IMG/VR virus record: IMGVR_UViG_3300037011_000237
Origin: an uncultured virus (IMG/VR IMGVR_UViG_3300037011_000237)
Taxonomy: Duplodnaviria; Heunggongvirae; Uroviricota; Caudoviricetes
Length of the DNA stretch: 36,634 nucleotides
Strand: one strand, 5' to 3'
Shown here: positions 4,050-31,727 of the stretch, piece by piece
Numbering within the stretch: position 1 is the stretch's first letter
Layout: each line of letters starts with the position of its first letter
Program-made: the position numbers and the translations under genes
The notes under the pieces: generated by a model
Told to the model about the DNA's origin: nothing
The model's input: the letters and a program-made list of their open reading frames with translations, nothing else
Database searches by the model: none

Positions 4050-4229
4050 TTATCTTTTTACATTAAATCCCTTTCTGTTTATGAGCATTATCACAACAGT
4101 GCAACTGGACAGTAGAGATGATATGCCAACGATTATTATGGCTATCAGGTAGCGTTCCAATATCTGAAAACAACTGCGCATCCAGCCAAAATTTGCGTTC
4201 ATCCAGTTTATATAATCAAGTTCATTCAT
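4050..4229 (-). CDS. small membrane protein, 59 aa (not in ORF track)
   Basis: AGGAG SD; MNELDYINWMNANFGWMRSCFQILERYLIAIIIVGISSLLSSCTVVIMLINRKGFNVKR, one hydrophobic segment. Confidence 0.55.
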   Translation of the reverse strand: MNELDYINWMNANFGWMRSCFQILERYLIAIIIVGISSLLSSCTVVIMLINRKGFNVKR

Positions 4230-4246
4230 TTCAGTCTCCTATTTAA

Positions 4247-4322
4247 TATGCCTGACTGGACTCGAACCAGTATGTTACCATTAGCCTTTCTACTGTATAT
4301 AAGACAGGGGGCATACAGGCAC
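4247..4322 (-). tRNA. atypical tRNA-like gene, anticodon UAU (Ile/AUA), no canonical D-arm
   Basis: acceptor GTGCCTG/CAGGCAT, T-arm ACTGG-TTCGAGT-CCAGT, anticodon arm CTGT-CTTATAT-ACAG; D-loop-like AATGGTAA lies 3' of the anticodon arm; no encoded CCA. Confidence 0.65.
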
Positions 4323-4352
4323 TCATTGCGCTCACCATTGCGCCACCCGCCA
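4323..4352 (-). pseudogene. 5' fragment of a canonical tRNA (acceptor 5' strand plus D-arm)
   Basis: TGGCGGG TG GCGC AATGGTGA GCGC AATGA, abutting the atypical tRNA; no matching 3' half seen. Confidence 0.5.
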
Positions 4353-4376
4353 GAACGAATTTCCTATTCTACCTTA

Positions 4377-4387
4377 ATTATACCACA
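4377..4387 (-). promoter_or_regulatory. extended -10 promoter upstream of the tRNA locus
   Basis: reverse complement TGTGGTATAAT about 25 nt upstream of the tRNA fragment. Confidence 0.5.
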
Positions 4388-4441
4388 CTTTGCCATTCTT
4401 ATCTACCACCAGTTTCTTAACTTGTGGTATAATTATCATAC

Positions 4442-4470
4442 ATTATAATCGATAAAGTCATTTTTGTCAA
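4442..4470 (-). promoter_or_regulatory. sigma70-type promoter, leftward member of a divergent pair
   Basis: reverse complement TTGACA aaaatgactttatcgat TATAAT, 17-nt spacer. Confidence 0.85.
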
Positions 4471-4505
4471 GGGTAAGCTGATATCATTTTAATGCCTTGC
4501 GACCC

Positions 4506-4534
4506 TTGACAAAATTCATATTATCGATTATAAT
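4506..4534 (+). promoter_or_regulatory. sigma70-type promoter driving the plus-strand operon
   Basis: TTGACA aaattcatattatcgat TATAAT, 17-nt spacer. Confidence 0.85.
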
Positions 4535-4564: not shown

Positions 4565-5164
4565 TTGAAGTCCGTTACACCAAAAGGAGTACAGGTGCTT
4601 AAACTGAAGCCGGAGATATTGACTCACCCAAATATTCCTAAACCGATGCATGGTCTTTCTCCTAGAACCATTGAAGGAGAAGATTGGTGGAATAAAGTTA
4701 GACAAGATGTTTATGATAAGTATGACCATCATTGTATTGCATGTGGGGTTTTTAAACTAGATGCTAAAGGACATAAATGGTTAGAAGCACATGAATATTG
4801 GAGTATTAACTACAGAAAAGGAATTTGTAAGATTAAGTCTATAGAGCCACTATGCCACTATTGTCATAACTTTATTCATTCTGGTAGATTAAGAATGATT
4901 ATGGGAAAAGAAAAATCTGTCAGAGAGGTTAAGGCTATTTTGGAACATGGATTTAAAATTCTTTCAGAAAACAATCTAGATTGTTTCCCATCAGCTTTAC
5001 ATCTTTCTAATATGGTAGGTGCAAATACCTATGGTGTAAAGGCATATTCTTTACCGAATGTAGAAATTCCTTGGGAAAAATGGTATTTACTTTGGAATAG
5101 AAAAAAGTATTACAGCAAATTTGCTTCCTACGAAGCATGGAGGAGATTTTACGGTGGCGAATAA
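4565..5164 (+). CDS. HNH-family endonuclease with Zn-binding cysteines
   Basis: CIACG...LEAHEYW...LCHYCHNFIHSG. Confidence 0.7.
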   Translation: MKSVTPKGVQVLKLKPEILTHPNIPKPMHGLSPRTIEGEDWWNKVRQDVYDKYDHHCIACGVFKLDAKGHKWLEAHEYWSINYRKGICKIKSIEPLCHYCHNFIHSGRLRMIMGKEKSVREVKAILEHGFKILSENNLDCFPSALHLSNMVGANTYGVKAYSLPNVEIPWEKWYLLWNRKKYYSKFASYEAWRRFYGGE

Positions 5165-31632: not shown

Positions 31633-31654
31633 TTTTGTTTCCTTGTTTAATTAG

Positions 31655-31727
31655 AATCCCTATCGGGATTTGAACCCGAAATCTAAAGATTAGAAGTCTT
31701 TTGCATTATCCATTATGCTATAGGGAC
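31655..31727 (-). tRNA. tRNA-Arg(UCU)
   Basis: GTCCCTA/TAGGGAT acceptor, GCAT-AATGGATA-ATGC D-arm, AAAGA-CTTCTAA-TCTTT anticodon arm, TCGGG-TTCAAAT-CCCGA T-arm; no encoded CCA. Confidence 0.92.

Follow-up and report, generated by a model that had tools for sequence, protein, structure and literature searches.

A predicted phage tRNA-Ile(UAU) on a non-cloverleaf scaffold and its family of Ile and Arg tRNA candidates

Closest described tRNAs and the layout of the element

D-armless mitochondrial tRNAs are shortened and have lost the interaction between G18 G19 and the T loop, permuted tRNA genes are restored to a canonical mature tRNA by processing, and tRNA-Ile(UAU), which is rarer than the GAU form, reads AUA without lysidine. 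Metazoan mitochondrial tRNA-Ser(AGY) and nematode mitochondrial tRNAs lack the D arm and have a short 5' connector, as described in parts of PMC7609411 and PMC4013460. Cyanidioschyzon merolae has permuted tRNA genes in which the 3' half is encoded ahead of the 5' half, according to a part of PMC3728597. A section of Mukai et al. 2017 (PMC5389517) presents allo-tRNAs and 8/4 or 9/3 tRNAs as natural non-standard tRNAs from metagenomes and phages, some of them with a UAU anticodon.

The DNA analysed here (the window) is a stretch of 36,634 nt from an uncultured virus of the Caudoviricetes (IMG/VR record IMGVR_UViG_3300037011_000237). A first-pass annotation had described, at 4247-4322 on its minus strand, a rearranged tRNA-like RNA with a UAU anticodon and a D-loop motif on the 3' side of the anticodon arm. 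On re-reading, the sequence it gave for this 76-nt element matched exactly, and the acceptor stem, T arm and 7-nt anticodon loop (U33, UAU, A37) that it had listed as intact were all present. The acceptor stem comprises 7 bp (G1.U72 plus six Watson-Crick pairs, so that 7/7 form) and is followed by an unpaired discriminator; the T arm has a 5-bp stem and a 7-nt loop with U54 U55 C56 R57 A58; and the anticodon arm has a 7-nt loop with U33 and a purine at 37, closed by only four Watson-Crick pairs plus a C.U mismatch replacing pair 27:43. Between the acceptor and anticodon arms there is only an 8-nt linker, as had been stated, and the D arm bearing G18 G19 that a tRNA has there is absent. The D-loop nucleotides instead sit 3' of the anticodon arm, in a 21-nt stretch that contains the GG-bearing, D-loop-like AAUGGUAA. 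Neither CCA nor C74 is encoded in the window copy, the three bases after the discriminator being UUA.

Conservation and pairing were evaluated in two alignments of relatives, A1 with 100 sequences and A2 with 150 sequences and the window left out. The resulting parts of the element, together with two upstream promoter-like sites, are as follows.

4316..4322, minus strand: acceptor stem, 5' strand GUGCCUG (RNA 1-7), pairing with 4248-4254
4313..4315, minus strand: linker U8 A9 U10, with U8 and A9 invariant in A1 and A2 (fixed in all A2 scan patterns and free only for the A1 members from the exact-core and first looser scans) and U10 at least 90% conserved
4310..4312, minus strand: D-stem-like helix, 5' strand G11 C12 C13, with its partner at 4284-4286
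4308..4309, minus strand: two unpaired pyrimidines, C14 C15, from alignments A1 and A2 (C U in most members)
4293..4307, minus strand: anticodon arm with 4-bp stem CUGU/ACAG and loop CUUAUAU, from stem covariation, U33 and A37
4299-4301, minus strand: anticodon UAU within the loop CUUAUAU
4287..4292, minus strand: connector UAGAAA (family consensus NNGAAA), from the scan with the connector left free
4284..4286, minus strand: D-stem-like helix, 3' strand G G C, from covariation of pair 11:39
4272..4283, minus strand: D-loop-like single strand UAAUGGUAACAU, from R:Y covariation, the conserved GG and the isotype-dependent base after GG
4255..4271, minus strand: T arm ACUGG / UUCGAGU / CCAGU, from stem covariation and a loop with the Rfam consensus
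4247..4254, minus strand: acceptor stem, 3' strand CAGGCAU, pairing with 4316-4322, plus unpaired discriminator A (4247)
4442..4470, minus strand: promoter-like TTGACA-17-TATAAT, a 12/12 sequence match in a consensus scan, about 120 nt upstream of the tRNA
4405..4377, minus strand: second promoter-like site, TG plus 10/12, a sequence match in the same type of scan

Within UAAUGGUAACAU, the order is an A14-like base, an R15-like base, G18 G19, a U20-like base and CAU with a Y48-like U, after which the T stem begins. A C at position 15 was counted manually in 7/100 sequences of A1, the window copy included. Across the family, the 3' strand of the new helix is G-G-N-U, which continues as A-R-Y-U-G-G-(U/A) and then runs through C-A-Y into the T stem. 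This strand would read as positions 10-13, A14, R15, 16, 17, G18, G19 and N20 of a canonical tRNA, and the linker strand U-N-C-C would stand for positions 22-25, with C-Y leading on like 26 and 27; this correspondence to positions 10-25, 26 and 44-48 follows sequence logic. It appears that the D-stem 5' strand and the D loop have moved, as one block, from before to after the anticodon arm, and the D-like helix and the anticodon stem would together form a single long arm of about the usual stacked length.

As in canonical tRNA-Ile, the scaffold has a 7-bp acceptor stem, a 5-bp T stem, the T-loop consensus and a 7-nt anticodon loop with U33 and A37, and its Ile members carry A73 and a U after G18 G19; as with canonical phage tRNA-Ile, it is found in tRNA arrays and fits AT-rich codon use. 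Canonical tRNA-Ile has a D hairpin between acceptor and anticodon arms; the scaffold lacks it there and places the D-stem partner strand and the D loop on the 3' side of the anticodon arm, which gives a three-helix junction with one long arm in place of the four-arm cloverleaf. The acceptor stem leads to a short connector with no D hairpin, as in the D-armless mitochondrial tRNAs covered by the parts of the reports cited above. Unlike those mitochondrial tRNAs, the scaffold has a normal length of 76-78 nt, retains the GG together with the T-loop consensus, forms a D-stem-like helix and shows a covarying 15:48-like pair, and its hosts have bacteria-type translation systems. Measured against the class as described in PMC7609411, a mitochondrial-type D-armless tRNA was ruled out by the kept GG, the T-loop consensus, the D-stem-like helix and the full length.

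Segment order is non-canonical, as in the C. merolae genes described in the cited part of PMC3728597, but in the scaffold the acceptor 5' and 3' strands keep their normal order at the two ends of the gene, where they base-pair, and the displacement affects an internal block only. Because the displacement is internal and the termini are in normal order, the mature scaffold RNA should be non-canonical; the order of the termini also eliminated a permuted gene. With the allo-tRNAs, as presented in the cited section, the scaffold shares that it is a natural non-standard tRNA type of phages and metagenomes with UAU among its anticodons; there, however, the acceptor and T-stem lengths are altered and the cloverleaf and D arm are retained, whereas here 7/5 is kept and the core is rewired. 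Class II tRNAs (Leu, Ser, Tyr) also have a long stretch between the anticodon and T stems, which in the scaffold measures 21-23 nt. In class II, the D arm is normal and the variable hairpin is self-paired, whereas the scaffold stretch pairs with the 5' linker and carries D-loop nucleotides. A class II tRNA was rejected on these grounds (no 5' D arm, pairing of the 3' stretch with the 5' linker) and because the anticodons are those of Ile and Arg only. A tRNA intron or group I intron was dismissed for lack of a second exon and of a complement to the tRNA-like fragment upstream, and a 3' tRNA fragment of the attP type because the acceptor stem is complete and covaries.

Detection, relatives and covariation

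Standard tRNA finders had been proposed as a check in the first-pass annotation. ARAGORN made a single call in the window, the canonical tRNA-Arg(UCU) at 31654-31727 (minus strand; 70.3 bits in Rfam), and left 4247-4322 uncalled; Rfam with default filters likewise reported only the Arg(UCU) tRNA. The Rfam tRNA model (RF00005) detected 4247-4322 (minus strand) in the region 4150-4480 with sensitive filters only, at 29.6 bits (E 2.1e-4) against a gathering score of 29, and its alignment deleted the D arm (4 nt vs 15) and inserted 17 nt ahead of the T arm. With these filters, no non-tRNA Rfam family was found at 4150-4480 up to E 10, and a riboswitch or leader RNA was discarded, the hits up to that value being tRNA only. 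When 20 other members were run with Rfam defaults, 3/20 reached threshold (30.8-35.7 bits), compared with 46-69 bits for the adjacent canonical tRNAs. ARAGORN calls overlapped 2/133 members (one locus per member), as a 94-nt Ile(UAU) call and a Leu call on the opposite strand. The scaffold family is missed by ARAGORN and marginal in Rfam. That the element went uncalled by ARAGORN and unreported in the default Rfam run would also be expected of a decayed or rearranged tRNA pseudogene without function, and a piece resembling a tRNA 5' fragment directly upstream, at 4351..4323, hints at local rearrangement.

Relatives were gathered with blastn and with pattern scans. The element itself had one blastn match among GenBank phages, in the crAss-like phage cr130_1 (81.7% over ~58 nt, unannotated). 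An exact scan of IMG/VR for a 23-nt core gave 37 loci, and two looser scans of viral contigs gave at least 119 and at least 120 stretches. In the species-representative genome collection, the exact 23-nt core had 0 matches, and a looser pattern returned 18 stretches, which were sorted by manual reading into 10 complete members, 2 cut by a contig end, 1 with the 3' part only and 5 chance matches. At all four loci of complete MAG-contig members on which ARAGORN was run (L306, L310, L312, L313), tRNAs adjoined the member. A marine-type member, with the anticodon loop CUGAUAA (anticodon GAU), matched 80 phage records as a blastn query, 77 of them Streptomyces phages; among the 60 listed of these records, 58 had no feature at the place and two, both of EGole, labelled it tRNA-Leu. 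This label does not fit the GAU anticodon, and most sister Streptomyces records have no annotation.

After filtering for acceptor, T and anticodon-stem pairing, four viral-contig scans and the looser scan of species-representative genome contigs yielded at least 133 distinct members, each 76-78 nt long. Leaving the connector unconstrained in a fifth viral scan added 39, for a total of at least 172 distinct relatives, so that homologues with the same layout, on which the first-pass annotation had made its reading depend, do exist. They come from crAss-like, Streptomyces and huge phages, mostly within tRNA arrays; MAG contigs account for about a dozen. The gathering patterns fix parts of the core and were combined with pairing filters, so conservation of those parts is partly by construction; pairs 11:39 and 42:56, the anticodon and position 20 were unconstrained during gathering, as was the connector in the fifth viral scan. 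In huge-phage records, covariance model R1 picked up two diverged members, their cores differing in sequence, one Ile GAU (57.5 bits) and one Arg UCU (41.5 bits), and both fold into the same three-helix topology.

The scans also met an unrelated conserved stretch (L039, L040, L065, L068, L075 and about 15 more) that shares CTTATAY-TCCG-TAGAAAGG by chance and runs on as GCGAAAAAA...CTCCTGAYGGGG. It recurs across many viral contigs, and a comparison with Rfam placed it in no family at gathering score.

In A1, 89.2% of the cells of the consensus structure were paired, compared with 60.3% in shuffles. The corresponding values in A2 were 98.4% and 64.9%, with 0/500 shuffles reaching the observed value, and the covariation score was 0.882 vs at most 0.146 with slid partners. 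Every pair of the three tRNA-like stems covaried in A2, namely all seven of the acceptor stem (98.7% of cells paired), all four of the anticodon stem (99.3%) and all five of the T stem (96.8%). Pairs 11:39 and 42:56 are the most informative, since they were not used in member selection, unlike the filtered stems. Of the proposal in the first-pass annotation that the 5' linker pairs with the 3' stretch through both GCC:GGC and ATG:CAT, the first half was borne out: pair 11:39 occurs in A2 as CG 77, AU 50, UA 12, GC 10 and UG 1, that is, in four Watson-Crick types, and is unpaired in 0/150 sequences. The second half was not supported, as the ATG:CAT pairs showed no covariation; in A1, 11:52 was paired in 3/100 sequences, and 9:54 was paired in 71/100 and did not covary. 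On these counts, pairing of A9 U10 G11 with C A U was rejected, and a 15:48-like pair is preferred. This R:Y pair, 42:56, was AU in 111, GC in 30, GU in 3 and other in 6 of the 150 sequences of A2; the U of CAU covaries with the A/G of UAR, as in the Levitt pair 15:48.

An all-against-all calculation of mutual information over 133 sequences placed 11:39 seventh and 42:56 fifteenth, the other 13 of the top 15 being acceptor, anticodon and T-stem pairs. RNAalifold independently returned the acceptor stem, the T arm and a helix 11-13:37-39 enclosing the anticodon stem 16-19:27-30. The window was kept out of the 150 relatives behind covariance model R2, which recovered the window copy at exactly 4247-4322 (minus strand) with 82.1 bits and E 1.6e-22, and gave 19.4 bits to the canonical tRNA-Arg of the window. 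The GG of the D-loop-like strand is at least 90% conserved. Of the members gathered with an unconstrained connector, 98/98 retain G and the final two A and 97/98 the full GAAA, with the first two bases variable (TAGAAA 59, TTGAAA 25, TCGAAA 5, ATGAAA 3, CAGAAA 3, TGGAAA 2, TAGGAA 1); our guess is that GAAA fills a groove in the manner of a variable loop. When folded as single sequences, neither the window copy nor L064 adopted the consensus fold. For the window copy, a different pairing was preferred (minimum free energy -20.6 vs -17.6 kcal/mol for the consensus structure), with a z-score of -1.29 and 23/200 shuffles folding as well.

The first-pass annotation had reserved the reading as a decayed tRNA for the case that homologues or covariation, and a stable processed RNA, were missing. 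Homologues and covariation were found: compensatory changes occur in every helix across at least 172 distinct relatives, the window copy scores 82.1 bits with a model from which it was excluded, and no change occurs inside the element in contigs from other sequencing runs. Conservation and covariation make the pseudogene untenable, and we give it a negligible probability.

Anticodons, identity elements and the question of decoding

The anticodons of the 133 members are UAU (80), GAU (22), ACG (20), UCU (8), CCU (2) and UCG (1), all of them Ile or Arg. A scan for members with position 35 other than A, run to completion, gave 35 loci, and all recovered members were Arg; a scan for NAV anticodons on the scaffold core gave 0; and in the scan that left both anticodon and connector free, 98/98 members were Ile or Arg. 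GG is followed by U in 101/102 Ile members and by A in 30/31 Arg members, C35 is present in 31/31 Arg members, and the discriminator is A in 102/102 Ile members and G (20), A (9) or U (2) in the Arg members. Anticodon position 35 with the base after GG was the 16th pair by mutual information. Table 1 of Giege and Eriani 2023 (PMC9976931) lists A20, C35, U/G36 and A/G/U73 as bacterial Arg identity elements and A73, U20, A35, U36 and A37 as those of Ile; compared with the sets in that table, the putative identity elements of the members match their anticodons. The GG, which the first-pass annotation had likened to that of a D loop, behaves as G18 G19, because the next base follows the position-20 isotype rule. 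CCA is encoded after the discriminator in 27/133 members, and a C stands there in about 126/133.

In a FastTree phylogeny, the isotype labels cluster, with 9 changes compared with a shuffled mean of 43.4 and a minimum of 35 (200 shuffles); on ~70 columns, the tree resolves too poorly for counting isotype switches and was read for clustering only. Isotype switching on the scaffold would be mutationally easy, since UAU and UCU differ at one base. That only Ile and Arg occur may be a matter of which synthetases can cope with the rewired core.

These results bear on whether the family is used in translation. A non-translational tRNA mimic would keep the anticodon loop and elbow for recognition rather than decoding and would serve as a decoy or sponge for a tRNA-cleaving defence nuclease of the host or a tRNA-binding enzyme, or as a tRNA-like primer or handle. 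The restriction to two isotypes fits a mimic aimed at particular nucleases, and the core wiring is retained across very different phages. The Streptomyces phage EGole moreover has canonical Ile(UAU) and Ile(GAU) genes besides its scaffold copy, which is therefore redundant for decoding, so that decoding capacity cannot explain it. On the other hand, it is hard to see why an anticodon-nuclease decoy would need a covarying 7-bp acceptor stem, and the mimic leaves unexplained the isotype-specific discriminator (Ile A 102/102), the isotype-specific position 20 and the CCA in 27/133. Scaffold members are also the only Ile tRNAs found in huge phage G003 and in cr130_1. In the first 80 kb of G003, ARAGORN identified 45 tRNAs, none for Ile, and two scaffold members (UAU, GAU) adjoin the Lys cluster; all R1 cross-matches in this genome fall within these 80 kb. 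The tRNAs of cr130_1 are Gln, Leu and a CUA suppressor, with the scaffold member as the sole Ile tRNA. The UAU anticodon of the window copy, finally, fits heavy ATA use. The decoy that the first-pass annotation had offered as its second option is disfavoured, because synthetase identity elements are conserved, and we regard a mimic of any of these kinds as improbable.

Two side observations concern the same phages. The 45 tRNAs of G003 (a 372-kb phage record; loci L365-L368) include one UUA and two CUA anticodons, which suggests stop-codon recoding. In EGole (L157 660-1271) and Jay2Jay (L158 660-1271), the scaffold tRNA-Ile(GAU) lies 13 nt past a nucleotidyltransferase CDS and is followed by an FtsK-like gene.

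Genomic context and the predicted role of the element

The window has a GC content of 27.2% and is part of a phage replication module, with a DNA polymerase, a UvsX-like recombinase, a ribonucleotide reductase, HNH endonucleases and a radical SAM protein. In its 34 ORFs, ATA accounts for 286/785 Ile codons (36%), in agreement with the earlier statement that AUA is common in this AT-rich genome, and AGA for 262/342 Arg codons. Its two tRNAs are the scaffold Ile(UAU) and the canonical Arg(UCU), with no tRNA array around the element; these two genes cover the heavily used A-rich codons ATA and AGA.

Co-transcription of tRNAs with mRNAs is common. Downstream of the discriminator, AGGAG starts at 7 nt and ATG at 18 nt, opening a small ORF at 4229..4050. 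This position, between the consensus promoter at 4470..4442 and AGGAG plus ATG, and the missing tRNA array around the window copy would suit an element that acts mainly in cis, as a signal for processing or stability within the leader of the downstream small-ORF operon, where RNase P cleavage sets the mRNA 5' end. Against it, 89/133 members have a canonical (ARAGORN) tRNA within 300 nt, the downstream genes vary among phages, and tRNA-mRNA co-transcription is compatible with tRNA function; a cis role is, in our estimate, very unlikely.

The reading we favour, and consider quite probable from the sequence comparisons, takes the element to be a functional phage elongator tRNA-Ile(UAU) on a non-cloverleaf scaffold, processed and charged by the host and reading AUA. 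After the acceptor stem would come U-A-U and a long arm made of the 3-bp D-stem-like helix and the anticodon stem, joined by a small internal loop (C-Y / NNGAAA). The exit strand would supply the single-stranded equivalent of the D loop (A14, R15, G18 G19, N20) and lead through a short variable piece, C-A-Y48, into the T arm. Transcription would start from the upstream consensus promoter, and host RNase P and 3' trimming would excise the tRNA from a transcript running into ORF 4229..4050, with CCA added by a host enzyme. The GG would dock on the T loop to form the elbow, host IleRS would charge the tRNA by way of the anticodon, A37, U20 and A73, and AUA would be read without lysidine. In other phages, the same scaffold would carry Ile(GAU) and four Arg anticodons.

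As to why the wiring has been kept, our best guess is escape from a host or phage factor that recognises a normal D arm, such as a tRNA-cleaving defence or a host shut-off nuclease. The full proposition, a translation-active non-cloverleaf tRNA that is accepted by host IleRS/ArgRS, EF-Tu and ribosomes and retained because it is invisible or resistant to such a factor, is tentative, and we think it rather doubtful. If it were true, it would amount to a counter-defence built into a tRNA fold, directed at a tRNA-cleaving defence system or at the phage's own host shut-off, and to a ready-made orthogonal scaffold.

The scaffold is best described as a large, conserved and mostly unannotated family of predicted phage Ile and Arg tRNAs, and we rate it as a tRNA family with a new core topology. 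The layout was not described in the full-text literature searched (main texts), which included parts of PMC7609411, PMC5389517, PMC9976931 and PMC6409571, the last a survey of viral tRNA genes. If charged and used, the family would be a widespread natural exception in bacterial-type translation, and the L-shape would be buildable with a different strand order. Inventories of phage tRNAs and analyses of codon supply would then count too few Ile and Arg tRNAs. For engineering, the scaffold is a candidate natural orthogonal or robust tRNA body, and a clientele limited to IleRS and ArgRS would help to show which synthetases tolerate a rewired core. Whether tRNA-targeting defences shape phage tRNAs could also be tested with it, and cultured Streptomyces phages such as Jay2Jay and EGole carry members, one of them at 75265-75341 of NC_055791.

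Several minor observations were made around the locus. On the plus strand, a 12/12 sigma-70-like match at 4506..4534 faces away from the minus-strand match at 4470..4442 and leads to the HNH endonuclease ORF at 4565-5164. The piece directly upstream of the element, at 4323-4351 (minus strand), resembles a tRNA 5' part in which a 7-nt acceptor-like strand is followed by a D-arm-like hairpin, GCGC-AAUGGUGA-GCGC at 4343..4328 (minus strand); it has no matching 3' half. A truncated tRNA 5' part is likewise found directly upstream in cr130-like phages (L001 ~1447-1493, L005, L007) and is absent in most members; it could be the scar of an insertion or rearrangement.

In contigs of four other sediment-metagenome runs, the element was unchanged inside 4247-4322; the sole difference was at position 4243, and X2 and X3 each span 4150-4480 unbroken. 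A 151-nt contig of a further sediment-metagenome run, X9, matches 4280-4317 only, with 5 differences and a different T arm beyond, and is a further family member from a different organism of the same habitat type.
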